Shown here one piece after another: positions 11,431 through 28,699 of a stretch of 64,000 nucleotides of DNA. How positions within the stretch are numbered: the first letter of the stretch is position 1; each line of letters begins with the position of its first letter. The notes below the pieces were generated by a model. It was not told the origin of the DNA. It worked only from the letters and a program-made list of their open reading frames with translations, and ran no database searches. The position numbers and the translations under genes are program-made. Origin of the DNA: Paraphysomonas bandaiensis (Eukaryota; Protista; Chrysophyceae); assembly GCA_965644295.1 (NCBI GenBank), contig CBFFRP010000379.1, positions 1 to 64,000 of the forward strand, read 5' to 3'.

Positions 11431-11560
11431 TACTTATGTACTATGTCTTTAAGTCATATCGATATTTCAAAAAGGTTTAAAGAATTGATTTGTTGATTTC
11501 ATACCTAAAGTATTTCAACTTAAATAACACTTAAGTAATAAGCAATATAGATAATTATAA

Positions 11561-12258: not shown

Positions 12259-12493
12259 TCACTCATTTGAGTGAAAACACCCCTCTGTTCACTGTTTTTG
12301 AGTGAAAAACACCCCTCTGTTCACTCATTTGGAGTGAAAAACACCTCTCTGTTCACTGTTTTTGAGTGAAAAACACCCCTCTGTTCACTGGTTTTGAGTG
12401 AAAAACACCCCTCTGTTCACTGGTTTTGAGTGAGGTGTCACTCATTTTGAGCGAAAACCCCCCCTGTTCACTGGTTTTGAGTGAAAAAACACC
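12259..12493. repeat. Tandem array of ~32-bp units with palindromic TCACT-N-GAGTGA core (8 cores)
   Basis: GAGTGA/GAGCGA cores at 12269, 12300, 12332, 12364, 12396, 12428, 12449, 12479. Confidence 0.9.
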
Positions 12494-12510
12494 AATTTCG
12501 AGAGAATAAA

Positions 12511-12699
12511 TTAAACGAACTTTAGGCCGTTGATTTTATTGTTCGCCTTTTTTCGTGCTCCGTTTACCTTCTTGTTGACTTTACTCTGAGCGCCACTGAC
12601 CTTCTTGTTCAGTTTCTTCTGGGCGCCGCTAACCTTCTTGTTAAGTTTATTCTGAGCGCCTGTAATCTTCTTATTGAATTTTGTTTTCAATCTGTCCAT
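12511..12699 (-). CDS. Small very basic repeat protein, putative DNA-condensing core protein
   Basis: 62 aa of 11-residue repeats K(L/V)NKKVSGAQK; function inferred from composition. Confidence 0.6.
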   Translation of the reverse strand: MDRLKTKFNKKITGAQNKLNKKVSGAQKKLNKKVSGAQSKVNKKVNGARKKANNKINGLKFV

Positions 12700-12743
12700 A
12701 GTAATAATATACCTATATATATTTTTCTCACGGAATATATATA

Positions 12744-13697: not shown

Positions 13698-13722
13698 TAA
13701 TAATTTCTATTATAAATATATA

Positions 13723-14178
13723 ATGCAAAATACTCAAAGTTTTACGTATGTTATTTCATCGGCAAATGCTGCTTCAGGAGATGCTGAGAACTGTTACATA
13801 GATTTAGACCCATTGCCACAAAACTATGAATGGTATAGTGTTCAATGCACTGGATTTATTATGAATTGTGAATCATTAGCTGCTGGTCATCCTCAGTATG
13901 TTTTATTGGTAGCTGATGATTTGGCAGAAGATGGATATTATCAAGGATTTGATGGTAACCAATGTGTTTTATCATATCTTAATACAGATGACACTATATC
14001 ACAAATGACATCAGGAGAAGGGTCTTTGTTTAAAGTAAAGAACTTTAGACAAAAAAGAAGAATACATTTTAGTTTGTATGAACCAGATTTAACACCTATG
14101 GCTGGTGTTGTAGATGACTCTGCAACAACATATTGGTGCATATCATTGCTGTTTACACCTATTTTAGAGTTGAACTAA
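13723..14178 (+). CDS. Single penton-like domain protein (151 aa)
   Basis: SFTYVISSANAASGDAENC...YSVQ...RIHFSLYE...YWCISLLFTPI; paralog of both halves of the upstream gene. Confidence 0.65.
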   Translation: MQNTQSFTYVISSANAASGDAENCYIDLDPLPQNYEWYSVQCTGFIMNCESLAAGHPQYVLLVADDLAEDGYYQGFDGNQCVLSYLNTDDTISQMTSGEGSLFKVKNFRQKRRIHFSLYEPDLTPMAGVVDDSATTYWCISLLFTPILELN

Positions 14179-15780
14179 ATCAATATGCGTTTTCCAAAAT
14201 ATTGAACCTGATCCTACAGTTTGGAAATTATTATATGTATGAATTTCAAATGTCCAATTATCGGCAACATCTCCAACAGTAAATATAAGCGGTGCTAGAG
14301 TACAACCTACAGTACTAACACTTCCACGATTTGCATCCCATACACCCGGACCATAAAGAGTTGCTCTTTCTAGCGTTCCATTTTTCTTAACTAATACACG
14401 CGCGCGTATATCTGTCCATGATTTAATACCCATGATTTCAAAAGAAACTTGTAGCATGTATCGTCCTGTATACTGAATGTAACCTGATGAATCAATCATA
14501 TTTGAATCACCGCCTGTAGGTGTTGTACTCAATTCCGAAGATGTCATATAATGTCCACCGCTAGATGTTTGATAAGTTGTATTATAAGCCATGGATGAGA
14601 AATAAGTTACTGGATCATCAATTTCTTCCCAATAACAATTTTTTTTGCTAGTTAATGTATCCAAATCCGTTCTATCAGTAGCTGTGAACGCTGTTGTTTG
14701 AATGGTAGCATCTGGATATTCTACTTTTGTATAACAATTGATGTGATCACATCTTATTTCATCAATTGCGCCTCCTCCACCAGCTTTTAATAATGTATTG
14801 ACTGGGAAAGTCCATTCATTTGAACTTCTTGTTATATCATCTAATAATGTGCTATAATCAGAACTAAACGCTTTTGTTTGTTCGCTAGCATCTGAAAATT
14901 CTAGAACACCGCCCGATCCTGTGATTTCAAACCTACAATTACTTCCTGTCATTCTGAATGTGCTTCCTGTACCTGACACAGTATGTAATCCATAACTTTT
15001 ATTTAGTAATAGATCGCTTGAAATAGTTAAATCATCATATCCACCACCGGTATAAGACAAAGGTGTTATAGTTGATTCAATAGTTGCAATGTCAGATGTG
15101 TTTGTGGATATGTTTGATGTGTTAGTCGCTATATTGGTTGTATTGGTTGATATGTTAGATGTATTGGTTGATATGTTTGATGTGTTAGTCGCTATGTTAG
15201 ATGTATTGGTTGATATGTTGGTTGTGTTAGTAGATATATTTGATGTATTGGTTGCTATATTTGATTCGGCTGTTGAGAGGTCTACATCAATACTCGCAAT
15301 ATCTGCCGTGTTTGTTGCTATATCACTTGTATTGGTTGCTATGTTAGTTGCGTTTGTTGCTATATCACTTGTATTAGTGGCTATATTTGTGGTGTTTGTG
15401 GATATATTTGATGTATTGGTTGTAATATTGGTGGTGTTTGTGGATATATTTGATGTATTGGTTGCTATATTGGTGGTGTTTGTGGATATATTTGATGTAT
15501 TAGTTGATATGTTATTTGCATTCGTTGTAATTTGAGTTTGTGCGTTTGAAGTGAGTCCATCAATATAACTCAGTTCAACATCTGTTATAGTTGTGCCATT
15601 TGCGACAATACTAGCCCCCGATTGCATTGTTATATCAGTATCAATAATAATGTTACTCGTTTCAAGTGTGTCTAAATATATATTATCACTTGTTAAACTG
15701 CCAGTCGTTATTTCGTCCGCTTTTATTGTTTGTAATCCATTCAAAGATGGTATGTTTAATGATGTATAGCCATTATTCAT
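14164..15780 (-). CDS. Putative virion fibre/spike with trimeric coiled-coil stalk
   Basis: About 20 heptads IxTNTxN, LSYIDGLTSNAQTQI motif, two (F/Y)xDxxxQTxAF fibre-type motifs, beta-rich C-terminal head; adjacent to the MCP gene. Confidence 0.75.
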   Translation of the reverse strand: MNNGYTSLNIPSLNGLQTIKADEITTGSLTSDNIYLDTLETSNIIIDTDITMQSGASIVANGTTITDVELSYIDGLTSNAQTQITTNANNISTNTSNISTNTTNIATNTSNISTNTTNITTNTSNISTNTTNIATNTSDIATNATNIATNTSDIATNTADIASIDVDLSTAESNIATNTSNISTNTTNISTNTSNIATNTSNISTNTSNISTNTTNIATNTSNISTNTSDIATIESTITPLSYTGGGYDDLTISSDLLLNKSYGLHTVSGTGSTFRMTGSNCRFEITGSGGVLEFSDASEQTKAFSSDYSTLLDDITRSSNEWTFPVNTLLKAGGGGAIDEIRCDHINCYTKVEYPDATIQTTAFTATDRTDLDTLTSKKNCYWEEIDDPVTYFSSMAYNTTYQTSSGGHYMTSSELSTTPTGGDSNMIDSSGYIQYTGRYMLQVSFEIMGIKSWTDIRARVLVKKNGTLERATLYGPGVWDANRGSVSTVGCTLAPLIFTVGDVADNWTFEIHTYNNFQTVGSGSIFWKTHIDLVQL

Positions 15781-15828
15781 AATCGTTATACATTATAATT
15801 AGAAATTTAAATTAAGTATTTATTTATC

Positions 15829-17244
15829 TCAGAATTGAGTGTAGCAAACCCCGGCCTCGCACACCATAACAGCGTCATACATAGCGTAAGTATCAAATCT
15901 GACGGATGGAGTTGATGAATTAGCGTTATACGTACAGTGCCAGAACACATCATCATTAGAAGTATTATATCCTGAGTAGATAGAATCTTTATCAGCATTT
16001 GAATATGTTTCAAGATCCATACCAACAAAGAAAGCCTCAGAACTGGCGGTATCATCTACATAATTCTCTGTTTCAGCATTAACCGTAGGGACATCAACAT
16101 CATAATCTCCTAAATCAATATTTGGTTCGTGATTGATATCTGACACGCTACCTATAGCCTTTATAGCTTCAATGAAAAACTCAGGGACAGTCTCAGGAGC
16201 TTTTGATGGTACAACCTTAGAGCCCAATCTCAGCGTATAAGAAGCAAGATTATAGTGACAAGAACCCATAGGGAAATAAGTAATAGAACCGTCGGCATTT
16301 TCTCTTTGAGTCATAAAAAGAGATTTCAAGCTGTTGAATTTAGCTGGCACAGGTATAGATACCTGGGTCGTTGCATTATTTAAAGTGGCATTGTACACGT
16401 AGTTCCTCCATGCAGGAACCACCCACTCAAGTCTTCCACCAGGTGCGGAATTATTGATTATATTCATTGCTTCACTTCCAAGCTCCATAAATTGAGCAAT
16501 AAATTCACAGTTATTTACTTTAAAAGAGGACAATGCAAGTTCAGAACAAATGAATTTCGCTGGGCTAGAAACTAGTTGAAGTTCAAGTCTAAGAGGTGCG
16601 CTTGTCATTGCAAAGAGAGGAATGTATTTATCAGAAAGAGAACCAATAATAGATAAAAGGTTAATGGTGTAAGTTCTAGTAAGAGTATCTCCCGCGGCGG
16701 CGATATCTGCAAACTGTGTTGTTTGTCCATCATCAATAAGTCTTTCACCTGAGTTAATAGTAAAAACTTGGTTGGTTGCCCCTTGAATTTTTGTTAATAG
16801 AGTACCTGCATCTGCTACTGTTGAATCAGTCACATCACAAAAGGCATCTCTCGTTAACCCAGCCATAATGTTTAACTTACCTTTAGCAGAATCTCCAGAT
16901 TGTTGTAATGACATAAGCATGCCTACAAGATTTCCGTAATTATCAATATCTTCAAGTAATTGAGAACCATGATAAAGTCTAAGTCTTTGAATGCAACCGT
17001 GAGCTCCAGCTCTATCTAAACGGGCATAGGCATTTGCTCCAGCTCCATTAGTTACTGTCAAGTCAAATTTTAAGAGTGATTCAGACCCTGCCATGACGAG
17101 ATTCTGAGCTGTGGGGATATTAATGATGATAGTCTGCCCATCTAAGTAGTTTCCAACGCCATTCAATGGTTGTATGTGAGTGGAAAAGTTACGTGCGTAA
17201 GCGCTTGATCGCTTGTTAGTGTATAATAGGTTTTTAGGAATCAA
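15829..17244 (-). CDS. Major capsid protein (double jelly roll, PLV type); begins with TTG
   Basis: 471 aa, beta-rich; IPKNL...SAYARN...PLNG, IQRLRLYHGSQLLEDIDNYG, KYIPLFAM, FFVGMDLETY; clustered with penton and ATPase. Confidence 0.88.
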   Translation of the reverse strand: MIPKNLLYTNKRSSAYARNFSTHIQPLNGVGNYLDGQTIIINIPTAQNLVMAGSESLLKFDLTVTNGAGANAYARLDRAGAHGCIQRLRLYHGSQLLEDIDNYGNLVGMLMSLQQSGDSAKGKLNIMAGLTRDAFCDVTDSTVADAGTLLTKIQGATNQVFTINSGERLIDDGQTTQFADIAAAGDTLTRTYTINLLSIIGSLSDKYIPLFAMTSAPLRLELQLVSSPAKFICSELALSSFKVNNCEFIAQFMELGSEAMNIINNSAPGGRLEWVVPAWRNYVYNATLNNATTQVSIPVPAKFNSLKSLFMTQRENADGSITYFPMGSCHYNLASYTLRLGSKVVPSKAPETVPEFFIEAIKAIGSVSDINHEPNIDLGDYDVDVPTVNAETENYVDDTASSEAFFVGMDLETYSNADKDSIYSGYNTSNDDVFWHCTYNANSSTPSVRFDTYAMYDAVMVCEAGVCYTQF

Positions 17245-17304
17245 AATAGTTATATATTATATGGATAAAATTAATTATCTATATAATTTCAAAATAAATG
17301 CGTT

Positions 17305-17919
17305 TTATACTGTGTTGTTATTCATGTATTCTATATGTTTTTTGGTTTTAATATGCTTATGCATAGAATCTCTTCGCATAACTTGGCCACAACTACAGGT
17401 AACTTCTTGAGCACATCGTTTTTCATGTGGTTTTTTTTTATCTTTTCTGGGTTTTTTTATTCCCTTATGTTTGTTTGTTTTCAGATGCTTGTGAATAGAA
17501 TCTCTTCGCATTACAAGGCCACAAGTACAGGTAACTTCTTCAGCGCCACGTTTATTTTTGGCGTCCTTTCTGTCCTGTCTTTGATTTCTTATGCGTTCGT
17601 ATTCCTTTTTACTCTCCACGGTATGAACAACGTTTTTGATTTTATTAACACACTCATTATTTTGAATGTAGTACCCTTCTCTCGCATGTAATTCATCTTT
17701 ACTGTTACATGGATAGTTTTCTACTAAATAAATAGCACAGTCGGGTTCATCAAGTATTTTAAAGGATGAAACGAAGTGATCTTTACCTTTTTTGTAACCG
17801 TTATAATTGTTGCGATGCTTTGCTAATCTTCTGGCTAGCGTGGGTTCACATGTTGATCCGTAATAAGTTTTACCACCTCCAACAATCTTGTAAATTTTTC
17901 CTTTCTGATAATCAGGCAT
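17305..17919 (-). CDS. GIY-YIG endonuclease with two C-terminal Zn-finger-like repeats
   Basis: GKIYKI...YYGST...LARRLAKH...ELHAREGYYI; twice VTCxCGxVMRRDSxHKHxKTxKH. Confidence 0.85.
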   Translation of the reverse strand: MPDYQKGKIYKIVGGGKTYYGSTCEPTLARRLAKHRNNYNGYKKGKDHFVSSFKILDEPDCAIYLVENYPCNSKDELHAREGYYIQNNECVNKIKNVVHTVESKKEYERIRNQRQDRKDAKNKRGAEEVTCTCGLVMRRDSIHKHLKTNKHKGIKKPRKDKKKPHEKRCAQEVTCSCGQVMRRDSMHKHIKTKKHIEYMNNNTV

Positions 17920-17988
17920 ATTCTTTTATACTCTAATATATTCTTATATCTTAAAGTATTTTAAATTAAAAATTGACTTAAACATTAT

Positions 17989-18414
17989 TTATGCGAATCC
18001 ATCTTCATCTGCGGTTGCTTGTGCGATCTTTTTGCGCACATTGAACTTTTCGAGATCATTAGCATGTTTGTTGGCATGTTTAAGAGCTTTGTTACTTGCG
18101 TTCTTATATTTGTGTAAGGCCTTATCCCCTTTGTCAAGCCCTTTTCTAGCACCATGCAAAGCAGTCGATAATGCATTAACTCCGGGGACGGAACCAGCTC
18201 CAGCATCAACGGCGGCGCCTAGTACAGCGTCGGCTATATCTGCCCCTTTTCTAACGTTGTGCAAAACTTTTGACCCAGTATTAACTGCTTTACGGTTGAT
18301 CTTTTGTGCTTTTTGAAGTACGTCGTGAGATTTGTGCCCTAATTGATGAGCCTTCTTATCTATTTTGTGACCAAGTTTTCTAACACCTCGATCAAACTTC
18401 TTACCTAGTTTCAT
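17989..18414 (-). CDS. Basic protein with central Gly/Ala-rich segment, putative core protein
   Basis: LG(K/H)K repeats at the N-terminus, ADAVLGAAVDAGAGSVPG; lies in the structural gene cluster. Confidence 0.6.
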   Translation of the reverse strand: MKLGKKFDRGVRKLGHKIDKKAHQLGHKSHDVLQKAQKINRKAVNTGSKVLHNVRKGADIADAVLGAAVDAGAGSVPGVNALSTALHGARKGLDKGDKALHKYKNASNKALKHANKHANDLEKFNVRKKIAQATADEDGFA

Positions 18415-18438
18415 GTATATATATACACTATATTTTAA

Positions 18439-19173
18439 TTATTCTATATCAAGCTCTAGAGTTAAAGACCAATGAACTCCATTCAGATCAAGCACATCAT
18501 CATCTTGATCCGTGAGTTTAACATGTAAATTTGTTAAATTATGAACATTATAGATCATATTACGAACATTGTATATATTAGAGTAACTGATCATACTGTG
18601 ATGGGAAGAATCTACTGGAATACTGCATAATATATTACTTTTATTAGGTGTTGAATTGTTAATATTATTGATTTGAAAGTTATCAGATGTAACATAAACA
18701 TTTCTAATTGTGAATAAATTAATTGATATGGTACTTGTAAGCACTTGTGACGTTGACGAGTATGTTGTATCATCTGTAAAACCAAGAACTTCAAAACAAG
18801 TACTATTCGATTCAAATGTAAAATCATATGTACTATGTGAAAAGGTTAATTTGTTTGTTTTGCTGTTATATGTGATTGTTAAAGCGGGTATGCCAGTTGT
18901 AATTGCTGTTATCAAGGTATTAACGTTATAATTTCCTTCTGTAATAGTTAATGTTTGTACTCCACCACCATTGACTGTATATTTTAAAGTGTTATTAATT
19001 GAACTAATGTTATAAAATGAATAAGGTATCATCGCCGTTTGAACCGAACAAAATATCTTTCTATGTTTTGGTATGTTGATAACAGGTAAATGAAATATAC
19101 AATCTGATGTATTACCTGATATATATCTATTTGCACTTTTGCTATTTAAAAAGATGCACAATTTATCGCTCAT
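18439..19173 (-). CDS. Minor capsid protein (penton)
   Basis: IFLNSK...IPYSFYNI...EGNYN...LHVKLTDQD..LDLNGVHWSLTLEL, typical of PLV/Polinton pentons; next to the ATPase. Confidence 0.85.
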   Translation of the reverse strand: MSDKLCIFLNSKSANRYISGNTSDCIFHLPVINIPKHRKIFCSVQTAMIPYSFYNISSINNTLKYTVNGGGVQTLTITEGNYNVNTLITAITTGIPALTITYNSKTNKLTFSHSTYDFTFESNSTCFEVLGFTDDTTYSSTSQVLTSTISINLFTIRNVYVTSDNFQINNINNSTPNKSNILCSIPVDSSHHSMISYSNIYNVRNMIYNVHNLTNLHVKLTDQDDDVLDLNGVHWSLTLELDIE

Positions 19174-19507
19174 CTATATTATTACAATCATATATTTTTC
19201 TATTCATTAACTCCTCTAATGGGGAATCACTGATATTTTCAGCTATAGTTTCAAGTACTTGCTGCCATCCTGGAATGTGAAAACCTGTCCCATTGGGCAT
19301 ATTTTTTAATACATGACGTATACCTTGTCTTTTAAAAGAATCGTTGTAGTGTAACATATTTATATCTATAACTTCATCTAAGCGTTTTGGTCTGACCTGA
19401 TAATCAAGTTCATCCGGTAGTTCATCCTCTGAGTCGGATGATAAATAATACTGCGTTTCAGAATCATATTGCAATTCGGTTGAATCATTTTCTGTATCAC
19501 TGTTCAT
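19163..19507 (-). CDS. Acidic hypothetical protein
   Basis: 114-aa ORF with TATATA-ATG leader between the ATPase and penton. Confidence 0.65.
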   Translation of the reverse strand: MNSDTENDSTELQYDSETQYYLSSDSEDELPDELDYQVRPKRLDEVIDINMLHYNDSFKRQGIRHVLKNMPNGTGFHIPGWQQVLETIAENISDSPLEELMNRKIYDCNNIDER

Positions 19508-19526
19508 TATATATATTGATTAGATA

Positions 19527-20258
19527 TTAATTATTATCAATTGTCAAAGTATTAAAGTTTTTAAATAATTTGTTTTCAACTGTATCCACATCTAAATGAT
19601 TATAGTTTTTATCATAAACATAATCATAGAGCTCAACCGCATTATCTTTCGTCATATTTAAAAGCTCTGATGTCACAACTGTCCACTCTTGCTGATTTTT
19701 AGGTTTAAACAAAGACATGTTAGTTATTTGTTTTCTCAATGTTAAGGGAAATAAATTATATGATTGTAATGTAAACACAAAAGCAGTATTTAAATGCCTT
19801 GCTTTGATAAGCATTCTGTTTAAATGTTTAATTAAAACATTGTCTTTTAAATGATTTGCATAATCATCAATAATAACTAAATTATATTCTGGAGGTATGC
19901 CCTGCTCTATGTTACTTTCTTTTAAGTTTGATAATTCATCATATATTATATCCAATAATTCCGGTGTTAATTCATGATATACCTTTCCATGCTCACTAAA
20001 TGGATGCTTTTCTACACTGAGAAAGCTACTCTGTGGGGTGATTAAGTATATATTATCAAACTTGGCTCTGTAAAACCTAGATGACTTAAACATTGACAAT
20101 AATAAGCTTGTTTTTCCTGATCCACCAGATCCTATTAAAGTATATATAAACCCATTTCGATGTGGTAAGTGTTCATTGATGTTTGGTATATAGACGTCCA
20201 TAACTTCTTTAATAGGTGCTGTATTAGGCAAATCAGAAGGTGTTTCTGTTATCTTCAT
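19527..20258 (-). CDS. A32-like (FtsK/HerA) genome packaging ATPase
   Basis: Walker A GSGGSGKT, Walker B LVIIDD, ARH motif, LQSY, LRKQ. Confidence 0.92.
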   Translation of the reverse strand: MKITETPSDLPNTAPIKEVMDVYIPNINEHLPHRNGFIYTLIGSGGSGKTSLLLSMFKSSRFYRAKFDNIYLITPQSSFLSVEKHPFSEHGKVYHELTPELLDIIYDELSNLKESNIEQGIPPEYNLVIIDDYANHLKDNVLIKHLNRMLIKARHLNTAFVFTLQSYNLFPLTLRKQITNMSLFKPKNQQEWTVVTSELLNMTKDNAVELYDYVYDKNYNHLDVDTVENKLFKNFNTLTIDNN

Positions 20259-20316
20259 TATATTATGAGTAAATATATTAATATTTTGTAAATATTTTTT
20301 CTACGGTAACTATATA

Positions 20317-20871
20317 ATGGTAGAACCCGAAGAATATATAGAAGAATCAATTCCTTTGACAAAACCAAAAAGACAGGTCAAACAACTCGCAACCATACCA
20401 GAGGAGCCTGTTAACACACCCCAAGCACCTATTCAGTCCACTCCTGTAAAAAAGAAAAGAGTGATGACAAAGCCTAAAACACAAGCCCAACTACAAGCAT
20501 TTGAAAAGGCTAGACAAAAAAGAGCAGAGAATGCTGCAAAGAGGCAACAAGAAAAGGAATTACATTACGCTCAATTATTAGCCAAACATCAAGAAGAGCA
20601 ATCAGTAACAAAGACAGATCCCGAACCAAAACCAACACCAAGGCCTGTTGTTAAACGAGCTCCAAGGCAAAAAATAATATATGATGATTCAGAATCAGAT
20701 GAAGAGGTTATAGTTGTTAAAAGACCATCAAAAAGAAAACCAAAAAAGAAAACAATTGTGGTCGAATCATCAGAATCTGAATCAGAATCAGAAGATGAAC
20801 AAGTATCTATACAAAGACAACCCGCTCCACAAAGACATGTGACTTTTAATTCAGATGATTATTTCGCATAA
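20317..20871 (+). CDS. Hypothetical K/E/S-rich protein
   Basis: 184-aa ORF with TATATA-ATG leader; low complexity. Confidence 0.7.
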   Translation: MVEPEEYIEESIPLTKPKRQVKQLATIPEEPVNTPQAPIQSTPVKKKRVMTKPKTQAQLQAFEKARQKRAENAAKRQQEKELHYAQLLAKHQEEQSVTKTDPEPKPTPRPVVKRAPRQKIIYDDSESDEEVIVVKRPSKRKPKKKTIVVESSESESESEDEQVSIQRQPAPQRHVTFNSDDYFA

Positions 20872-20900
20872 TATTATCTTTCACTATTATATAAATACTA

Positions 20901-21965
20901 ATGAAGGAGAAGAAAATCTATTTATCTCTTGACGACTTACATAAACTTTATGGTATTGCACCAGATTTGATTTTAAAAAGAAAAAGAACAAAGAAAAAGC
21001 GCAAAGCTAAAGGCAAAAAGAAAACTAATTTTGGTACTGGTGTAAATAAGCAATTTGGGGGTGGTGGTGGTGGACCGGCCACTGCAGGTGTGGGTGCTGT
21101 ACATAGCTCAACTATTGACAGAAGAGAGATTGATATATTGCGAGGTCAGTTAAATGAAGCTAAAAACAACCCAAAGAATCCCGCCAATGAAGGTGTTTTG
21201 AGACTTGAAAATGTTCCAGAAGAGTTAAAAGAGACTTTCAAATTTGCAAAATTAGCTAATGACGGGTATGCGACTGGAAATATTAAAGTCTCTAAATCTC
21301 CAGCTGGAAATTTAATTATGGGTCCAACATCTCAAAAACAAAAAACTGCGCAACGTAGAAGAGCCATTGATATATCCAGCAAGGCAGATAATACCATCAA
21401 CCCCGCACCACCAATATCTACAAGCAATGATTTGATGTATACACAGCCATTAGAATTTAAATCAAATGATCAGGTGGAAGAATTAGACGATGGTGTTGAG
21501 GATTTGCCTTTAGAGCCACAAACTAAATTAGCTAAACCAAAAGGCAGAACTCAAAAACAGAAAGAAGCAACAAAACAATTAGTTCAACGTAGTAAAGACA
21601 AGAAAAGCGAAAGATTGAACAGAGAAGGTATGGAGGCAGAGGACTATGATGCCGATAAAGCAATTAGAGCCAAAAATCACTATGAAAAAAGACACATGAG
21701 ACAAGGATTAGAAGGCTTGTTTGTCAATATGGAACCCATTACCGGACAAATGAGTCGAACAAGACGAACAGAAATGAATATAAAACAAAAAGATGAAATA
21801 GAGGATGAGAACATGCATAAACTAAGAACAAAGCATTATGTCCGAACTCATAAAATCAAGCCACCAAGCACACCGGTACCAGCAGAATATTTTACTCCCA
21901 GAAAAGAAAATGAATTTGGCTGGGATGAATGGCGCAGTGATATCTCAGATGATGGTTTCGCTTAA
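20901..21965 (+). CDS. Hypothetical basic protein with K-rich tract and poly-Gly
   Basis: 354-aa intact ORF. Confidence 0.7.
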   Translation: MKEKKIYLSLDDLHKLYGIAPDLILKRKRTKKKRKAKGKKKTNFGTGVNKQFGGGGGGPATAGVGAVHSSTIDRREIDILRGQLNEAKNNPKNPANEGVLRLENVPEELKETFKFAKLANDGYATGNIKVSKSPAGNLIMGPTSQKQKTAQRRRAIDISSKADNTINPAPPISTSNDLMYTQPLEFKSNDQVEELDDGVEDLPLEPQTKLAKPKGRTQKQKEATKQLVQRSKDKKSERLNREGMEAEDYDADKAIRAKNHYEKRHMRQGLEGLFVNMEPITGQMSRTRRTEMNIKQKDEIEDENMHKLRTKHYVRTHKIKPPSTPVPAEYFTPRKENEFGWDEWRSDISDDGFA

Positions 21966-22004
21966 ATATAAAATGTTTAAATATTTTGTGTCACAATTAT
22001 ATAA

Positions 22005-22508
22005 ATGAGAAAAGTAGTTATTAAAGACAACGACAACAACAGACCTCTTGGAGTTGAAGAAACTAAAGAGATAGAAACTGAAGTTAAACGTGAATGTAGT
22101 TTTAGACATCGATCGATTCCAGACAAAAAACTATTTAATGTTGAGTTAAATGGACTTTCTGACAAAATTAAAGAAATTAAACTCGAAAATCAGCAGTACG
22201 AATTAGTTACTAAAATTCAATCTGTTTTAGATCTCTTTGATCCTGATTCAAATAAATACAATGAACAAATTCTATTATTTACTTGTCAAGCAGTTGAAAA
22301 TTTTATCACAAAACCAAAATCTGGTGATAGAAAACTGGCGGTTGTAGTTGAAGCAGTTAAAAAATATTTCAATAATGACATAGAATTGATTGTCAAAATG
22401 GTTGAGATATTACTACCACGAATTAAAAAAATGAATTTCATTAGACGTAATTGGAAAAGAGTAGCACGTTTTTTTTGCGGTCTGCAGCCGAGCGAGCCGT
22501 CGATATAG
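22005..22508 (+). CDS. Hypothetical protein; alternative -1 frame C-terminus to 22564
   Basis: 167-aa ORF; T8 run at 22469-22476. Confidence 0.7.
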   Translation: MRKVVIKDNDNNRPLGVEETKEIETEVKRECSFRHRSIPDKKLFNVELNGLSDKIKEIKLENQQYELVTKIQSVLDLFDPDSNKYNEQILLFTCQAVENFITKPKSGDRKLAVVVEAVKKYFNNDIELIVKMVEILLPRIKKMNFIRRNWKRVARFFCGLQPSEPSI

Positions 22509-22587
22509 CTATAACAAAAGCTTTTAAAATATTACTATTACCTATGATACTTGCTGTTTTATAATTTTATTGATTATTAATATAATA

Positions 22588-22854
22588 ATGAATAAAGAGA
22601 AACTTAAACAGTATAATCATGAATATTACTTAAAGAATAGAGACACGTTATTGATTCGAAATAGAATTTACTATTTCAATAATAAAGCTAAATGCAATGA
22701 GTATGCTAGAAACTATTATCATACTAAAATTAAAACACTTAAAGAGAACAATGAATATAAGAAATGGGTCCACACAAAAAAGGATACCAAAAGGAAAAAA
22801 CAGAAAAAATATAAAGTTATCGATGATGATACATTTATAATAAATTTTACTTAA
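22588..22854 (+). CDS. Hypothetical Y/K/N-rich helical protein
   Basis: YNHEYYLKNR-type repeats common in viral DNA-binding proteins. Confidence 0.55.
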   Translation: MNKEKLKQYNHEYYLKNRDTLLIRNRIYYFNNKAKCNEYARNYYHTKIKTLKENNEYKKWVHTKKDTKRKKQKKYKVIDDDTFIINFT

Positions 22855-23267
22855 AGATTTCTATGTTTACTTGAACATTTATGTTTAGTTTTTTCAGATT
22901 CTGGAAATGATTCTTGACATCCCCAACAATACATCAATGGATCAGTTTCACGAGAAGGTCGTTTACTGACCGCGCCTCTTGAACCAGCAGGGAGCTGATG
23001 CTTCAGCGAGTCGTCTTGTTTAGATTTCTTGATGTCTTCTAATTCTTGTTTTATTGCTTCTAATTCGCTTGAAACATTTAACTTTGCTTGTCTTCTCTCT
23101 GCCGTTGTCATGCATACTTTTGATGCTTGATGTTTCTTCATATTTTGATGCGATACTATTCTGCCACATTTTAAACATTCTTCTTTTTCAAATAGCTTTG
23201 CACATATTGCGCTTTTCTTTTCAGCGTAGTATTTTTTATTATACTCTCTTCTTGAATCTTTGTTCAT
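22851..23267 (-). CDS. Zn-finger hypothetical protein
   Basis: CLKCG...H....VC and CWGC...HKC; ACTTAA 36 nt upstream. Confidence 0.65.
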   Translation of the reverse strand: MNKDSRREYNKKYYAEKKSAICAKLFEKEECLKCGRIVSHQNMKKHQASKVCMTTAERRQAKLNVSSELEAIKQELEDIKKSKQDDSLKHQLPAGSRGAVSKRPSRETDPLMYCWGCQESFPESEKTKHKCSSKHRNL

Positions 23268-23357
23268 TATACTATACTCTTATATATTAATTTCTTTTTA
23301 AGTGTTTTTTACTAAATTAGTTTATTTATATTTTTTATATGTGTATTATATATCATT

Positions 23358-24404
23358 ATGAATGATCTTATTAAAAAATATGATATCGATGAAACATTAA
23401 CAAGACCAAGTAAACAAACCAAGAAGAAAAGATATAATCGAATAAAAGATAATATACCACTTAAAGAAAATTATAACTTTATGGCGGATGTGTTGCATTT
23501 ACCAAAAGATAAAAAAGGATATCAATATTTATTAGTTGTTGTTGATTTGGCAACTGATGAGTTTGATATGGAACCAATGAAAACAGAAAACTCTGATGAA
23601 ACTTTAAAAGCAATAAAGGTGATATTTCATCGTAATCATCTTAATAAACCGTACGCTTCTATTCGAACAGATGGCGGTGCATCATTTAAAAAAGGTTTTG
23701 CAAAATATTTGTACGACGAAAGTATATTACATAACGTTGCATTAGCGGGACGACATAAACAAATGTCGGCAGTGGAGAGTTTAAATAGAACATTAGGTAG
23801 ATTTTTCAATGGTTATATGAACAGCATTGAGTTAAAAACTGGAAAAATTTATAGAGAATGGACTGATATAGTTGATAGGCTAAGAATAGATTTGAATAAA
23901 CTAAGAAAAAAAGATGTGTCTGATATTGACTTGGCAACACATAAGTATCCTGTTCCAGACACAACCAAATCAAAACCTAAATATAATGTGGGTGACTTTG
24001 TGTATCGAAAATTAGACAAACCCAAAAATGCTTTAAATGAAACTATTAATTCTGATGTGTTCCGAGAAGGTGACTTCCGCTTTGACCCTATACCTGTACA
24101 AATTAAACAAATATTGTATTATCCTGGAAAAGTTACATACAGATATATGTTAAGTGGTATTAAAAATGCATCCTTTACAGAAGATGAACTAATGCCTGCA
24201 CCTGATGCCGAAGAAGAACAAGTTGAAATTAAAAAGATTCTTGATAAGCGATTTTTTGATGGCGAAAATCACTATCAAGTTTGGATGTATGGAGAGTTAA
24301 AAAAAGACGCGGGATGGTATGCTAAAAGTGATTTACTAAAAACTGTTGATAAAAAGTTATTAGATGATTTTGATAAAAGCATTAAGAAAAAGAAAAAACG
24401 TTAA
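23358..24404 (+). CDS. Retroviral-type (rve) DDE integrase with C-terminal chromodomain-like region
   Basis: ADVLHLP..YLLVVVD, IRTDGGASF, VESLNRTL (D,D,E); IKKILDKR...HYQVWMYG....GW. Confidence 0.92.
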   Translation: MNDLIKKYDIDETLTRPSKQTKKKRYNRIKDNIPLKENYNFMADVLHLPKDKKGYQYLLVVVDLATDEFDMEPMKTENSDETLKAIKVIFHRNHLNKPYASIRTDGGASFKKGFAKYLYDESILHNVALAGRHKQMSAVESLNRTLGRFFNGYMNSIELKTGKIYREWTDIVDRLRIDLNKLRKKDVSDIDLATHKYPVPDTTKSKPKYNVGDFVYRKLDKPKNALNETINSDVFREGDFRFDPIPVQIKQILYYPGKVTYRYMLSGIKNASFTEDELMPAPDAEEEQVEIKKILDKRFFDGENHYQVWMYGELKKDAGWYAKSDLLKTVDKKLLDDFDKSIKKKKKR

Positions 24405-25651
24405 CAACATTCTTCAATATGTGTTTTTATGTCCTTGTATTTAAGTCGCTCGTCACACTTTGGACATATATGATTGTATCCATTTACATGTCTCCATTCA
24501 ATCATACCCGAAGTTTTATCTTCTCGCAATAGATTGGGTATATCTAACTTTGGATCTTTCTTAAAAGTAACGTTATCGGTGTGAATACGAATGACGTTAT
24601 CAATATCCTTTAATGCTACTTCTGCTATTTTGTTTCTTGCATATGAAAGCAAAAACGGAAGTAGTCTAATATTGTATTTAAAAGGATTATTCGAATCTAA
24701 AAGTTTGTAATTCTCTTCATCGTTACTATGTGCTGACATATACTTATCCTGTACAATATAATCGCATTCTTTTGTATATCCCCAGTCATAACCTTCATTT
24801 TCTAATTCATCATATGATTTATATATCATATTGTACTGCGTTAACGTTCCCCATAGCGATGACATCAAATGTTTTACAAGTTTATTGTTGGGATACAACT
24901 TTTTTAACTGAATTAAACGATTGTACCATTCTCCAAATATTTCACTAGCTTTTACTAAATCTTTTGTTCTGTATATGTATGCGTTTGGTTTATCATCAAC
25001 AATTAACTCAATATTTACATCAAATTTCTTTTTGTATTTCATTGCATGTTTTAGAGATATATGAGTATATGTATGTTTTGGAGAAAATGAAAATATCTTT
25101 TTAAAGTTTTTATTATCAGATGTAATTTTAACTCTGTATAATCCGTATTTAAGTTTAGAACGTTTTTTTAACTTCTTTAAGTATTTTTCTTTTCCTTTCT
25201 TTGTTGGTATTATAAAATTATCATCTATCAATAAAGATGGATAAAATCCACTAAAATCGTATCCATATGAATTAAATACTCCCGGTTCGCAAAACTGTAA
25301 ACCTGCATTATAACAATCTTGAAAGTATCCATTTTCTATTTTTTTAATCCTGTCATGGTGTTCATATTTTCCTTTACAATATTGCATAAAGACACATTTA
25401 ACAGCGCCCAAGTGTGAATGAAATTTTTTGTAATCAATTGACAAGTTTTTAGTAAATCTCATCTCTCTACACCACGCCCTGAAATCTTTACCATACTGTT
25501 TTATTCCTTCATCTGATGCTTCGTATCCTTTAAACAATTGATACGCATATTCTAATTTCATACATTTCTCATGTGACATGTCTGAAAAGATGTAGTTCTT
25601 AACATCTAAAACTCTGTACATGGCACTATTCATTTTATAATAAAAATACAT
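24401..25651 (-). CDS. Short divergent family-B DNA polymerase lacking an exonuclease domain
   Basis: YNAG (YxGG/A), YDFSGFYPS (motif A), KHLMSSLWG (motif B), IHTDNV (motif C); C-terminal CPKC...H...C. Confidence 0.8.
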   Translation of the reverse strand: MYFYYKMNSAMYRVLDVKNYIFSDMSHEKCMKLEYAYQLFKGYEASDEGIKQYGKDFRAWCREMRFTKNLSIDYKKFHSHLGAVKCVFMQYCKGKYEHHDRIKKIENGYFQDCYNAGLQFCEPGVFNSYGYDFSGFYPSLLIDDNFIIPTKKGKEKYLKKLKKRSKLKYGLYRVKITSDNKNFKKIFSFSPKHTYTHISLKHAMKYKKKFDVNIELIVDDKPNAYIYRTKDLVKASEIFGEWYNRLIQLKKLYPNNKLVKHLMSSLWGTLTQYNMIYKSYDELENEGYDWGYTKECDYIVQDKYMSAHSNDEENYKLLDSNNPFKYNIRLLPFLLSYARNKIAEVALKDIDNVIRIHTDNVTFKKDPKLDIPNLLREDKTSGMIEWRHVNGYNHICPKCDERLKYKDIKTHIEECC

Positions 25652-25696
25652 TCTATATATTATTATTATATTAATTATTTTTTAAGTAGTTTTATA

Positions 25697-26050
25697 TTAA
25701 ACAAAATTATCCTCAATATCATCGGGTACAAAGGCAGTAATTTGCAATTGTGAGAACTTTGAAAACTTATCTGTGTCTTTGACTCTATTTGCATAATAAT
25801 CTTCTTCATCATCAACATTGAGGTCACTATAAAATCCTTTGAGTGTGCTCCATCTGGCTGCGTTTAAAGCGCGCACCATAAATAGTTTATTTGGATCTGA
25901 ATTTTGCAATCCTTGTACAATATCGCGTACATCTTGAGCAGAGATATTATTCTTTTTGTCATTTCTGTACAATTGTATTGTTCGTTCTTTTCCGTGCTTC
26001 ACAGTTTTCTCTTTGATAATCTTTTTAGTGTAAACAGACTTTTTTACCAT
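25697..26050 (-). CDS. Hypothetical protein in the replication module
   Basis: 117-aa ORF with ACTTAA 37 nt upstream. Confidence 0.65.
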   Translation of the reverse strand: MVKKSVYTKKIIKEKTVKHGKERTIQLYRNDKKNNISAQDVRDIVQGLQNSDPNKLFMVRALNAARWSTLKGFYSDLNVDDEEDYYANRVKDTDKFSKFSQLQITAFVPDDIEDNFV

Positions 26051-26092
26051 TATATATAACTAAACTATATATAATAATTTTTTAAGTACTTT

Positions 26093-27694
26093 TTAATTTA
26101 GTAAATCAATAATTTCATTTAATTCTTCTTTTTCAATTTTTTGTTGTTTAAATATATTTGTTTTAAATGTTTCGGGTATGGGTTCATCGTCATTGTCAGT
26201 ATCATATTCAAAAGTAACTTTCTTAACTTTGACCATCTTAGATTTCTTTAGTTTAACCTCTTCGGGTTCTCTTAATCTATACAATTCATCTTGAAGCTTT
26301 TTTATTTTTTCTTGTAATTTCATATAATCTTCTGCTCTAACATACTGTGCTTTATCATCTGATTTAATGTATTTTGGAACAGGTTCATTTACTTCTTCAA
26401 CACCGTCGGTTAGTGTATAATACTTCTCTGAGATCAAATAATTTTCTAATTCTTTAATATTGCATCGGTACGATCTGCCTTTTTTAGTATTTATTTTCTT
26501 TATGACTTCGTGCTGTTTCATTTCTAGTCCAAACTTTGTAATATTAGTTTTGTATTCAAAGCCATTTTGTTTTAGAAACAAACAATATCTATTGTAGAAG
26601 TCTGTTGCACTTGCTTTTAACTCTTCTGTTTTGTCTAATTCTTCTTGCATGACATTAACTAAAAATTGCGCTGTAATTGGAATATTTCTCTCTTGTAAGT
26701 CATTATAGTAAGATGTTATAGGTCTCTCTTTTTGAAATGACTTTACTTTAATTTTTCTATTCAATAAGTAATCATAAAATGCTCTGTCATATATTCCGCT
26801 GTTTATTTCGTCATGTAAATTGTTAAAATATTCTTCTGAATGCTTTTTCGATGGAATTTTTCTAGCAGTAAAACGCCTATCGTTATGTTCTATTTTAATG
26901 CTGTCAAAGTTGTTAGTTAAAACTACCCAATTTATATGATTTCTCTCGTGCCTTGTTTTTTCTTTCTTTATTCTAATTGAATTTATATCTCTTGTAATTG
27001 CGTTTTTAATTGCCTCAATTATTTCATCCGTCTTTGCTCTTTTACTTTCATTTAGTACGATTAAGCATTTGTGTGATATATCTTCATTAAAGTTCCCACC
27101 AATCAACATATCAATATGATCCTCATTTAAATAGTATTCTGGTCCCAATATTTTAATACCAAAATGATTTAACCCTGTATCTTTACCATCTCCTGGTTTA
27201 GATTGTAGTGACATTGAAACATCTGTTTTATTACCTGTCTGTACTATATATGCAAAATAATCCATCGCATAGTCAAACATTTCATCACCAAATAGGTACT
27301 GATAATGTTTAAACATTAAACTATTTTCAAATTTAAGATCAGTCTTTTTTAATTTTGAAGCTCTCCATCCGTTCCATTGATTGTATTGATCATTTGATAC
27401 TTCCTTACATGGCTCAAATACAATCTCTTTATATGTTCTTATACAAGGGTCTCGCATCCAATCGTTGACAAACATACAATGTTTTTTCTCAGACACTTCT
27501 GTTCCGTCCTTCTTACTTTTTGTTTCAATCTTTGTATAAAATAAGTTTTCATACAATGTTAACATTTCGTGCTTGGATCTCATTACAATCTTTTCATCAA
27601 CAATTTGAACGTATGTAACGGGGTTAATAACTTTGAAGTGAGTCTTTTCAAAAGTAACTTTCAATTCTTTGTAAGAAATTTCTTTACTTGTCAT
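26093..27694 (-). CDS. SF3 (D5-like) helicase/NTPase without an evident primase domain
   Basis: Walker A-like SKPGDGKDT, Walker B LIVLNE, motif C VVLTNN, NDRRF. Confidence 0.85.
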   Translation of the reverse strand: MTSKEISYKELKVTFEKTHFKVINPVTYVQIVDEKIVMRSKHEMLTLYENLFYTKIETKSKKDGTEVSEKKHCMFVNDWMRDPCIRTYKEIVFEPCKEVSNDQYNQWNGWRASKLKKTDLKFENSLMFKHYQYLFGDEMFDYAMDYFAYIVQTGNKTDVSMSLQSKPGDGKDTGLNHFGIKILGPEYYLNEDHIDMLIGGNFNEDISHKCLIVLNESKRAKTDEIIEAIKNAITRDINSIRIKKEKTRHERNHINWVVLTNNFDSIKIEHNDRRFTARKIPSKKHSEEYFNNLHDEINSGIYDRAFYDYLLNRKIKVKSFQKERPITSYYNDLQERNIPITAQFLVNVMQEELDKTEELKASATDFYNRYCLFLKQNGFEYKTNITKFGLEMKQHEVIKKINTKKGRSYRCNIKELENYLISEKYYTLTDGVEEVNEPVPKYIKSDDKAQYVRAEDYMKLQEKIKKLQDELYRLREPEEVKLKKSKMVKVKKVTFEYDTDNDDEPIPETFKTNIFKQQKIEKEELNEIIDLLN

Positions 27695-27750
27695 TTATAT
27701 ATAATACTATATATAAATATTTCCTTAAGTATTTTTAAATTAAATTAAAA

Positions 27751-28197
27751 TTAAAAACCAAATTTCATTTGTCGTTGTTTTGCACGATATGCTTCTTGAT
27801 ACTGTCTTATTTTTTCCTTATTCTTTTCTCTGTATTCTTTACTGGACGTAGCTATCCTTTCTTTATTCTTTTCTCTGTATTCTTTACTGGACGTAGCTAT
27901 CCTTTCTTTATTCTTTTCTCTGTATTCTTTACTGGACGTAGCTATCTTTTCTTTATTCTTTTCTCTGTATTCTTTACTTGATTCAGCTATCTTTTCTTTA
28001 TTTAGCTTTCTATACTGTTTATTGTAATCTTTCTTTTTCTCTTTATTTTCCCCAAACTTTTTGACAAGTGTCTCGCAATTTAGATGATCACTGTATACAA
28101 ACCAACATTTCATATTTGAATCCCACTGGGCGCCTAACAGTTTAGCATCATCTTTGAGTTCGAAATCGACATTAAGAAATATCCTGAAAGTTTTCAT
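27751..28197 (-). CDS. DUF5710-like domain protein with 15-aa tandem repeats
   Basis: FLNVDFELKDDAKLLGAQWD....WFV; repeats SKEYREKNKERIATS (45 bp). Confidence 0.75.
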   Translation of the reverse strand: MKTFRIFLNVDFELKDDAKLLGAQWDSNMKCWFVYSDHLNCETLVKKFGENKEKKKDYNKQYRKLNKEKIAESSKEYREKNKEKIATSSKEYREKNKERIATSSKEYREKNKERIATSSKEYREKNKEKIRQYQEAYRAKQRQMKFGF

Positions 28198-28297
28198 TTA
28201 CTTTATAATATTACTGTAGTGCCTTATTCTTAAGTAGTTTTAATATAAAAAATACTTTAAGTACATATTACCTGATGTCTGACCATGAAACATTTTC

Positions 28298-28699
28298 GAC
28301 AGTGATGACGCTATTGTGTGGGTACGATAAGATAGTGTAGTAGGTATGGTGGCGAGCTCGTTTGTAGCTACTGCGGACTTCAATCTTAAAATCTACTGCT
28401 ATTCTCTCTATATTATTTTACTGCTGGTGTTGAGTATAGGGTTGATGCCCTTTCTCATATTATAATAATTATAACTATTTTATCTATTTTTATTTCTCTT
28501 GAAAATTACCCTAAACCCTCAACCCTTAATATATAATATATTATAAAAAAGATATATATAAAATGAATTATTAAAATGTTATATAAAAATGAATTATATT
28601 ACTTTTTAAAAATTATAATATAGGATTGGTTTTAGGGATTCGATTTAATGGACCCCATTGCCTGCAAGCGGAGCGTATAAACCATCCTGCTTTTTTTTT
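28298..28699 (-). repeat. Right terminal inverted repeat
   Basis: Reverse complement of 11029-11430; followed by GCTGAA. Confidence 0.97.

Follow-up and report, generated by a model that had tools for sequence, protein, structure and literature searches.

An intact polinton-like virus (PLV) of 17.7 kb is integrated in the genome of Paraphysomonas bandaiensis. Its replication genes encode a family-B DNA polymerase (PolB), a stand-alone SF3 helicase and, between them, a small protein, ORF117. We propose that the exonuclease-less PolB, of about 400 residues, would start DNA synthesis on ORF117 as a separately encoded terminal protein (TP) of 117 residues. In our judgement it is likely that a TP-vOTU-PolB polyprotein of the mavirus type was split, that the protease was lost and that ORF117 primes through its Tyr85. 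A preliminary description of this DNA had treated priming as unexplained and named the short PolB as a possible primase or initiator and the 117-residue ORF as a possible terminal protein or cofactor. Priming is probably not missing from the PLV, and a terminal protein is the most likely identity of the ORF.

How might such an element copy itself? Once excised, the linear genome would receive a primer at each end. PolB would link dAMP to Tyr85 of ORF117, with a T inside the terminal T-run as template, and would then slide back and extend the strand. The helicase would unwind the duplex ahead of PolB; with unwinding coupled to a protein-primed polymerase in this way, neither a primase nor a lagging strand would be needed. 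The rve integrase would then reinsert the copies.

The integrated element and its ends

The window analysed is a stretch of 64,000 nt (assembly GCA_965644295.1, contig CBFFRP010000379.1, positions 1 to 64,000), and the features of the element within it are collected in Table 1.

Table 1. Features of the integrated PLV and of its replication genes (window coordinates).
Feature	Position	Strand	Remarks
Whole integrated PLV	11029..28699	.	17,671 bp; terminal inverted repeat (TIR) pair and empty site
Left TIR	11029..11430	+	402 bp; begins 5'-A9; preceded by GCTG (11025-11028)
Major capsid protein (MCP), PLV-type	15829..17244	-	weak Capsid_N match, Pfam E 0.005
Minor capsid (penton) protein, probable	18439..19173	-	DUF5901, E 3.5e-6
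A32-like packaging ATPase	19527..20258	-	Pox_A32, E 3.4e-13
rve integrase	23358..24404	+	convergent with PolB; Pfam rve, E 1e-6
PolB	24401..25651	-	416 aa; short, protein-primed type
ORF117-PolB gap	25652..25696	-	45 bp; TACTTAA motif at -36
ORF117	25697..26050	-	predicted stand-alone TP (protein primer)
Tyr85 codon of ORF117	25796..25798	-	predicted priming (linking) residue; sole invariant column
SF3 helicase (DUF5906), stand-alone	26093..27694	-	533 aa; Pfam E 7.4e-12
DUF5710 ORF	27751..28197	-	148 aa; contains 45-bp repeats
Right TIR	28298..28699	-	402 bp, 100% complementary; 5'-A9 on minus strand; followed by GCTG (28700-28703)

The target duplication, GCTG, measures 4 bp, or 5-6 bp if flanking A's are counted, and the empty site is represented in contigs from two other runs, in which 11025 is joined to 28701. 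Long TIRs and terminal base reiteration (A9) are hallmarks of a linear genome, seen here in the integrated copy rather than in a free linear form. Runs of A at the 5' end also close the helicase side of the contig in two unrelated relatives (L035 and L086); these are the only related contigs with terminal A-runs, most others stopping short of the element end and L003 starting with other repeats. Because slide-back priming needs terminal reiteration (PMC5175343), the A-runs of the PLV would suit that mechanism.

The capsid module appears to be PLV-like. The MCP is 38-42% identical to MCP candidates of three related loci (L035, L053 and L084) and matches no Sputnik MCP profile, whereas the MCP of another locus, L088, does. 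The penton label is a probable one, drawn from size and position. A search for Pfam-type domains found no protease gene within the element. The C-terminal tail of the integrase looks chromodomain-like by eye, and an integrase homologue is present in 58 of the 61 loci with at least 400 bp of sequence downstream of PolB. The TACTTAA motif ahead of PolB recurs at -36 to -38 ahead of ORF117, the helicase and the DUF5710 ORF, and is a candidate promoter giving each gene its own start. The DUF5710 ORF thus carries the same upstream motif as the replication genes, yet the module does not always include it in related loci.

A shortened polymerase and a helicase without a primase

The preliminary description noted a 416-residue PolB with about 110 residues before the YxGG/A motif and with altered catalytic motifs that keep the motif-A Asp and the second motif-C Asp. 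These points hold: 113 residues precede the motif (YNAG), and DFSGFYPS, KHLMSSLWG and HTDN start at positions 132, 260 and 357. The homologues listed by a search limited to 228-728 aa measure 234-502 aa. Among 107 aligned homologues, D132 and K260 are present in all and D359 in 106, and none of the motif variants listed retains the first motif-C Asp. As catalytic residues and replacement alike are kept across the family, the altered motifs are family traits rather than signs of decay. Nor is selection relaxed: where dS could be estimated, dN/dS is 0.03-0.23 for PolB and 0.03-0.33 for ORF117, so both genes are under purifying selection.

The AlphaFold2 model of PolB (pLDDT 96.8) identifies it as a protein-primed-type enzyme. 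Its closest solved structure is phi29 polymerase (Z 18.2, rmsd 5.0, next best Z 8.6), with 350 residues aligned versus about 200-250 for RNA-primed PolBs. Among viral models the mavirus pPolB fits best, over 402 columns of the 617-aa target (TMq 0.76, E 1.8e-25, rmsd 3.5). Folded insertions lie between motifs A and B (about 145-235) and between B and C (about 272-325), where TPR1 and TPR2 are expected. The model suggests an exonuclease remnant (1-113), a palm with TPR1, fingers, TPR2 and an optional C-terminal zinc finger (about 396-416).

The preliminary description had also concluded that PolB has no room for a full exonuclease or TP domain and that it ends in a zinc finger. PolB indeed has no intact exonuclease and no TP domain, but its 113 N-terminal residues are not empty: they superpose on the phi29 exonuclease domain (model 1-416 to phi29 8-542), and 103 of the 107 homologues have 118-161 residues ahead of motif A. 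Positions 1-43, the site of three N-terminal strands, hold no conserved acidic residue in the 107 homologues. This region thus appears to be a carboxylate-free remnant that lacks an active 3'-5' exonuclease domain. The zinc finger is present but is an add-on, since a CxxC tail occurs in just 6 of the 107.

The thumb is probably missing as well. We provisionally equate the NxY motif of PolB with the KxY of phi29 polymerase from spacing and secondary structure. Since 76 of the 107 PolBs end no more than 12 residues after NxY, the thumb seems to be absent; the structural alignment ends at phi29 residue 542, and the thumb residues of phi29 polymerase extend to 575 (PMC1475753).

The helicase was said to lack a primase, and this stands. 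Residues 132-410 match only the C-terminal helicase part (533-818 of 855) of a phage primase-helicase PHROG profile, the first 160 residues match no PHROG profile, and of 26 helicases encoded in related loci not one reaches E<=0.001 against any Pfam primase family. In those loci too the SF3 helicase is a separate gene, not fused to the palm.

ORF117 as a candidate terminal protein

ORF117 belongs to a large stand-alone family: with ORF117 as the query, a choice that favours shared residues, we gathered 234 homologues. Members of the family measure 93-162 aa (median 112) and comprise only the core domain. A homologue adjoins PolB in 48 of 49 informative loci (those with at least 700 bp upstream), which clustering at 70% PolB identity reduces to 34 of 35; the sole miss, L003, has an ORF117 candidate at E 0.0014. 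The two are separate ORFs in 60 co-oriented pairs, with unrelated genes between them in 13. Pairwise identities of the two proteins are correlated across 53 loci (Spearman 0.66), as shared descent alone would predict. The helicase partner, by contrast, falls into five sequence groups and the capsid modules vary too. The TP candidate, PolB and the integrase therefore move together, whereas helicases and capsid modules are exchanged.

The model of ORF117 (pLDDT 82.8) has strands at 7-17, 20-29, 56-62, 67-71 and 101-109 and helices at 38-51 and 79-89. In element order, b0-b1-a1-b2-b3-a2-b4, this matches the PRD1-type TP, or D1, domain (PMC11071308), and suggests that ORF117 is a homologue. The mavirus pPolB ranks second among BFVD matches, a weak hit (E 0.017, prob 1.00, TMq 0.53; matched range not given) below a Pandoravirus protein (E 7e-4), and it is the only protein labelled a DNA polymerase among the best 50. 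Y-family little-finger/PAD domains, which are reported to match TP/D1 best in the PDB, account for 22 of the best 50 PDB matches in a second search (for example, model residues 21-117 on the PolIV little finger 241-347, Z 4.1). Their Z scores of 4.0-5.1 lie within background, tied with RNA polymerase alpha subunits and unrelated folds. No sequence match to a TP was found in Pfam, PHROG, NCBIfam or the PDB.

Tyr85 is the only invariant column of the family (141 of 141, never Phe). Of the 141 sequences, 134 have an acidic residue at -1 and 123 have one at -2; Gly or Asn occupies +3 in 125, and Gly or Pro lies within +5 in 69. Tyrosine is the priming residue of PRD1 and Bam35 (PMC11071308; PMC5175343). 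In known TPs the linking residue belongs to the loop that follows a2, whereas Tyr85 is modelled inside helix a2 itself (pLDDT about 72-85); in the family alignment that loop holds no conserved Ser, Thr or Tyr. ORF117 also lacks the N- and C-terminal helical extensions of the stand-alone TPs of PRD1 and adenovirus, extensions presumed to mediate polymerase binding (PMC11161782), and in this resembles the fused D1 domains.

ORF117 might instead be a non-covalent accessory subunit (a little-finger-like DNA-binding substitute for the thumb, an origin binder or a PolB-helicase link), with the primer supplied by a host or giant-virus primase or by another small ORF. The predicted little-finger/PAD-like fold, the apparent lack of a thumb, the helical setting of Tyr85 and the mildly basic character of the family (median net charge +4) fit this account, which we nonetheless consider unlikely. 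Where a tyrosine is purely structural, Phe can usually take its place; position 86 shows this (Y 78, F 28, L 25), whereas position 85 next to it does not. A protein primer is also what a TPR1/TPR2-type polymerase, TIRs and terminal A-runs require, and among the small ORFs of the related loci only ORF117 is constant. Accessory and primer roles are not mutually exclusive.

Less probable still is that PolB primes de novo, serving the helicase as a primase-polymerase in the manner of the pipolin enzyme piPolB. In both enzymes the first motif-C Asp is missing and KxY is not canonical, and PolB has no exonuclease to degrade short primers. In place of KxY, piPolB has KH-X8-KTRG, and its Lys613 is required for de novo priming (PMC5695915). 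PolB conserves K379-T/S-T/S-G382 and N390-x-Y392; Lys379, near-invariant (105 of 107), lies 11 residues before Asn390, a spacing similar to that of Lys613 before KTRG, though the equivalence is one of spacing alone. However, the nearest structural relative of PolB is the mavirus pPolB, which shares the motif-C change (PMC11071308). Moreover, pipolins are circular, keep the exonuclease and have no TP (PMC5695915), whereas the PLV ends in TIRs and its PolB has a TP-like gene as constant neighbour.

That PolB is catalytically dead or vestigial, with replication of the element left to host or giant-virus enzymes aided by its helicase, is very improbable: exonuclease residues and probably the thumb are lost, motifs A, B and C are altered, and the thumb loss counts here because removing 13 C-terminal residues cripples DNA binding by phi29 polymerase (PMC1475753), but both catalytic Asp residues and the motif-B Lys persist in at least 106 of 107 homologues, dN/dS is low, and length and domain plan are constant.

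Origin of the split module and its meaning

The preliminary description singled out an exonuclease-less PolB beside a primase-less SF3 helicase, a combination that is not new. Mavirus is known to have lost the exonuclease, to have an altered motif C and to encode its SF3 helicase separately; it combines a 617-aa pPolB (TP, vOTU, exonuclease remnant and palm) with a stand-alone S3H and an rve integrase (Krupovic et al. 2024, PMC11071308 / PMC11161782). The PLV shares with it the exonuclease remnant, the loss of the first motif-C Asp, the helicase and integrase, TIRs and a short target duplication, besides the structural matches of PolB and ORF117. It differs in that the TP-like domain is a separate gene of 100-120 aa, that no vOTU is seen in PolB (about 400 aa), where motif A is preceded by no invariant Cys/His pair and the N-terminus aligns with the phi29 exonuclease domain, or between the genes, and that the PLV-like capsid module comes with no detected protease gene.

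Also similar is pMVRE group 1, in which palm-only truncated pPolBs are paired with DUF5906 helicases (Wei et al. 2026, PMC13215967). It shares RVE, chromodomain, a GIY-YIG-like gene and MCP, and occurs in protist genomes and aquatic metagenomes; in the main text the terms 'terminal protein', 'vOTU' and 'priming' are absent.

A secondary split of the TP from a eukaryotic pPolB has precedents in the adenovirus pTP and polymerase and in a polinton of the coral Stylophora with a separate TP (PMC11071308). In these the vOTU stays on the polymerase, inactive or active; adenoviruses also keep the exonuclease, and their large TP carries additional helices. The PLV, by contrast, has no vOTU left, and its TP candidate consists of the core domain alone. 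PRD1 and Bam35 likewise have adjoining separate TP and polymerase genes, with a priming Tyr and terminal base reiteration (PMC11071308; PMC5175343), but they are bacterial viruses with proofreading polymerases and larger TPs, and they have neither helicase nor integrase. Compared with theirs, the two-gene state of the PLV is most likely secondary. The Tlr1-like pPolB-S1H proteins of PLVs and transpovirons also have an exonuclease-less, helicase-assisted palm with TPR1 and TPR2, but there it is part of one polyprotein that also includes TP, vOTU and a fused SF1 helicase. We favour the derivation of ORF117 and PolB by gene split from a mavirus-type polyprotein, after which the vOTU would have been lost as redundant, a TP encoded separately needing no cutting free. 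No fused TP-PolB intermediate was found, which is a weak test, and we found no published description of such a split.

The TPs of polintons, virophages and PLVs have so far been predicted from structure models as domains of large polyproteins, none of them known to have been tested (PMC11071308). A free primer candidate of 117 residues with one invariant Tyr, beside a PolB of 416, makes protein priming in this virus group testable with a pair of small recombinant proteins and a single point mutant. The published evolutionary scheme would gain a further, independent TP split, here with the protease lost completely, and a thumbless processive PolB, if real, would be mechanistically interesting in itself. 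Profiles are now available for a polymerase family that Pfam otherwise misses (1 of 107 members matches DNA_pol_B_2). A survey of protist genomes found many elements without a detectable polymerase (PMC10120064); as existing profiles miss this family, it could account for some of the endogenous viruses with a helicase but no polymerase. The wider reading, on which we are evenly divided, is that a widespread lineage of protist viruses with PLV and virophage capsids, which could form part of these helicase-only endogenous viruses, uses a PolB of about 400 residues without exonuclease activity, protease or thumb. A bare TP of 110 residues would prime for it on an invariant Tyr and perhaps also stand in for the thumb, gripping DNA in little-finger-like fashion. 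This would be the third independent split of a TP from a eukaryotic pPolB and the only one with complete loss of the vOTU.

The element and its ends

The element is an intact endogenous polinton-like virus (PLV) in a eukaryotic genome. It is AT-rich, carries 402-bp perfect inverted repeats at both boundaries and has an empty-site counterpart: contigs of two other runs join position 11025 to 28701. Each end has the sequence 5'-A9 and is bordered by GCTG; the target duplication measures 4 bp (5-6 bp counting adjacent A's). The gene set comprises an MCP whose Capsid_N match is weak, a probable penton, an A32 packaging ATPase, an rve integrase, an HNH endonuclease and, at the right end, four co-oriented replication genes. 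Database records place one PolB homologue in the chrysophyte Epipyxis.

Features of the element and of the flanking DNA
Feature	Position	Strand	Remark
Integrase-chromodomain-like tail of probable LTR retrotransposon	3-1205	+	by eye
233-aa ORF, similar to the penton-like gene of the element	3037-3738	-	by eye
Integrated PLV	11029-28699
Array of 32-bp repeats	12258-12488		inside element, between HNH gene and next ORFs
Fibre-like protein, 538 aa	14164-15780	-	stalk of 21-bp (7-residue) repeats
GIY-YIG-like endonuclease, two zinc-finger repeats	17305-17919	-	label by eye; no Pfam match
PolB, family-B polymerase, 416 aa	24401-25651	-
ORF117, 117 aa	25697-26050	-
SF3 helicase, 533 aa	26093-27694	-	DUF5906 at residues 163-274 (Pfam search)
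DUF5710 ORF	27751-28197	-

Two related loci likewise show an A-run at the helicase-side end of their contigs (A21 in L035, A8 in L086). A third locus, L003, starts differently, and most other related contigs stop short of an element end. In protein-primed replicons, terminal bases are recovered by sliding or jumping back across a short reiteration, 3'-TTT in phi29 and 3'-CCCC in PRD1 (PMC5175343).

The motif TACTTAA lies 36-38 nt upstream of the starts of the four replication genes (28197, 27694, 26050 and 25651) and of the fibre-like gene (15780), all on the minus strand. ACTTAA also precedes the HNH gene. At the 14 further starts that were examined, those of MCP, penton, ATPase and integrase included, TACTTAA is absent; the motif is a candidate stage-specific promoter.

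Contigs of sibling elements differ at two genes outside the replication module. Copies of the fibre-like gene diverge near 14163, at the 3' end; the GIY-YIG-like gene is skipped (17309-17984) or placed elsewhere, as expected of a mobile gene. Outside the element, an AT-rich island at about 3000-6000 (25-28% GC) holds the 233-aa ORF and a 148-aa ORF, and is probably a second, degraded PLV insertion.

A truncated polymerase of the mavirus type

PolB matched nothing in sequence searches of Pfam, PHROGs, NCBIfam, PDB and GenBank phages, and DNA_pol_B_2 was matched by just 1/107 PolB homologues. A search restricted to proteins of 228-728 aa found 157 homologues; the alignment comprises the query and 106 of the 120 listed, one near-identical sequence and 13 shorter or partial ones being left out. 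Asp132 of motif A and Lys260 of motif B do not vary in it, Asp359 of motif C is present in 106/107, and the first Asp of motif C is replaced in all motif variants printed. The altered motifs with both catalytic aspartates kept, as given in the preliminary description, are therefore family-wide; the terminal zinc finger that it also listed is optional (6/107).

The AlphaFold2 model of PolB (pLDDT 96.8) matched phi29 polymerase with Z 18.2 (350 residues aligned), while the next chain reached 8.6; residues 1-416 aligned to phi29 8-542, and Foldseek gave E 5.7e-10. The best match among viral models is mavirus pPolB, the TP-vOTU-PolB polyprotein of the mavirus virophage, where TP is terminal protein (E 1.8e-25, TMq 0.76, rmsd 3.5, 402 columns, 20% identity). 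Second in BFVD is a 339-aa 'Harvfovirus' polymerase, A0A3G5A8K3.

Because of the phi29 and mavirus matches, we assign the N-terminal 113 residues of PolB to the place of the exonuclease domain. In the 107-sequence alignment they have no conserved acidic residue on their three strands, and no invariant Cys/His pair of the kind a vOTU would need. The earlier statement that there is no room for a full exonuclease or terminal-protein domain holds in that PolB has no intact one of either, but the exonuclease position itself is filled. At the other end, 76/107 PolBs have a conserved NxY within 12 residues of the C-terminus. Spacing and secondary structure in the model suggest that this is the KxY motif; if so, PolB would be missing the thumb.

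PolB falls ~200 aa short of the mavirus enzyme, in which those residues hold TP and vOTU; PolB has neither. Wei et al. (PMC13215967) term such enzymes palm-retaining truncated pPolBs and report that in group 1, which includes mavirus, they are typically paired with DUF5906. Published work thus already describes the design in which an exonuclease-less PolB is combined with an SF3 helicase that has no primase.

A separate, linked gene with an invariant tyrosine

Where, then, is the terminal protein? The gene ahead of PolB is the candidate. Neither ORF117 nor its alignment matched a relevant family or PDB sequence; calmodulin matches (E at least 0.026) are noise. A whole-library search found 234 homologues; the lengths of the 150 listed range from 52 to 162 aa, and 140 of these entered the alignment, 10 short ones being dropped.

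An ORF117 homologue occurs in 61 of 85 PolB loci, the window included, and 21 of the 24 loci without one have <450 bp of upstream sequence. Among loci with 700 bp or more of upstream sequence, 48/49 have the homologue (34/35 once PolBs are clustered at 70% identity); the single miss has a candidate at E 0.0014. L086 is a further locus with the same pair. The gap is 36-109 bp in 44 of 60 co-oriented pairs; the rest have unrelated genes inserted (13), a broken PolB start (2) or a longer empty gap (1). In L039 (1542-1874), uniquely among the loci, the homologue and the helicase lie downstream of PolB on the opposite strand, so that linkage is kept and order changed.

The split is real, since it recurs in 60 co-oriented pairs and each gene has its own upstream motif, the TACTTAA found 36-38 nt ahead of every replication gene in the window. 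The same observations rule out an assembly frameshift or an intron joining ORF117 to PolB, and the contigs from RNA-type runs show none that bridges the two genes by a junction. ORF117 and parts of PolB and the integrase are represented in contigs of a poly-A metatranscriptome sample, although contigs are no guide to transcript level or ends. ORF117 is under purifying selection (dN/dS). No longer protein (285-2000 aa) containing its domain was found among 7997 candidates, a weak negative. ORF117 as a duplicated piece of the palm was rejected (profile comparison with the PolB family, probability 0.15, no sequence-level similarity). A free vOTU between the genes seems unlikely: the 13 ORFs inserted there differ from one another, and by eye no cysteine-protease-like one is among them.

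The ORF117 model (pLDDT 82.8) has the element order b0-b1-a1-b2-b3-a2-b4, as described for PRD1-type terminal proteins and for D1 domains such as the N-terminal, TP-like one of mavirus pPolB. Mavirus pPolB itself ranks second in BFVD (E 0.017, prob 1.00, TMq 0.53; target range unreported), behind an uncharacterised 124-aa protein of Pandoravirus inopinatum, A0A0B5JAJ1. The fold reported as nearest to TP and D1, that of Y-family little-finger/PAD domains, recurs in 22 of 50 PDB rows, many of them redundant, at Z 3.9-5.1, level with unrelated folds; PolIV LF 241-347 aligned to residues 21-117. The fold may still be that of a TP, although the PDB match lists contain no known TP structure. Tyr85, preceded by acidic residues, is the only invariant residue (141/141 in the alignment, 60/61 in the locus set).

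Priming and module exchange

Linkage, predicted fold order and the invariant Tyr85 favour the preliminary guess that ORF117 is a terminal protein, and we consider this likely. The fit is imperfect: Tyr85 is modelled within helix a2 rather than in the loop that follows it, which counts against the reading, and ORF117 is without the helical extensions of other stand-alone TPs. That ORF117 is instead a non-covalent accessory protein seems unlikely. A complex prediction of ORF117 with PolB scored 0.00, run without alignments and with the partner fold uncertain, and is informative neither way. De novo priming by PolB, as in piPolB, is less probable still, even with a conserved Lys379 spaced like piPolB Lys613 (PMC5695915). 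A dead polymerase is very unlikely; PolB dN/dS is 0.03-0.23 in pairs with estimable dS (about half of 40 pairs are saturated), not the relaxed selection that had been named as a counterindication.

With ORF117 as the predicted primer, priming need no longer be called unexplained. The first nucleotide, dAMP, would be joined to Tyr85 by PolB on the terminal T-run; after sliding back, the polymerase would elongate from both ends while the helicase unwinds. Protein priming by ORF117 would require no primase. No primase domain was detected in the helicase, in line with the preliminary description: it matches phage primase-helicase profiles in their C-terminal, helicase part only, and 0/26 helicases of related loci match a primase family (DUF5906 in 21, D5_N in 4, one with both; 2 without any match).

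At E<1e-25, 28 helicases fall into 5 groups, and that of the window has just 22-27% identity to those outside its own pair; by sequence comparison, the helicase is exchangeable between modules. In two runs there are contigs that leave out 26249-27701, and those of the RNA runs part from the window at 26249. Sibling elements thus appear to carry a different helicase at 26250-27700, a swap caught within one virus population.

The integrase accompanies PolB in 58/61 loci with enough downstream sequence. The window's MCP type occurs with the module in three related loci (L035, L053, L084), and other MCP candidates in two (L003, L052); two more (L001, L086) combine the module with ATPase and protease genes that resemble the ones in L088, a locus with a Sputnik-type MCP. 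Virophage-PLV exchange of replication modules and a link between pPolB and DDE integrases have been reported in recent preprints (10.64898/2026.10.13.758929, 10.64898/2026.06.19.733378, 10.64898/2026.07.28.741278). L001 is filed under a giant-virus MAG; its genes, A0A0B5JAJ1 and A0A3G5A8K3 may belong to PLVs or virophages that reside in giant viruses or were binned together with them.

The vOTU has been proposed to cut TP from the polyprotein (PMC11071308), and the split would make it redundant. TP has split from eukaryotic pPolB in adenoviruses and one coral polinton (PMC11071308); both retained the vOTU, whereas in the present module, where none was seen, it has probably been lost. In a search of the text of mostly open-access papers, none turned up that describes a TP split off or standing alone in replicases of mavirus-like viruses or PLVs; the clade may already be in the Wei et al. 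datasets, unannotated. The module is a variant of the mavirus-type replicase, and its new part is a stand-alone terminal protein candidate without a vOTU.
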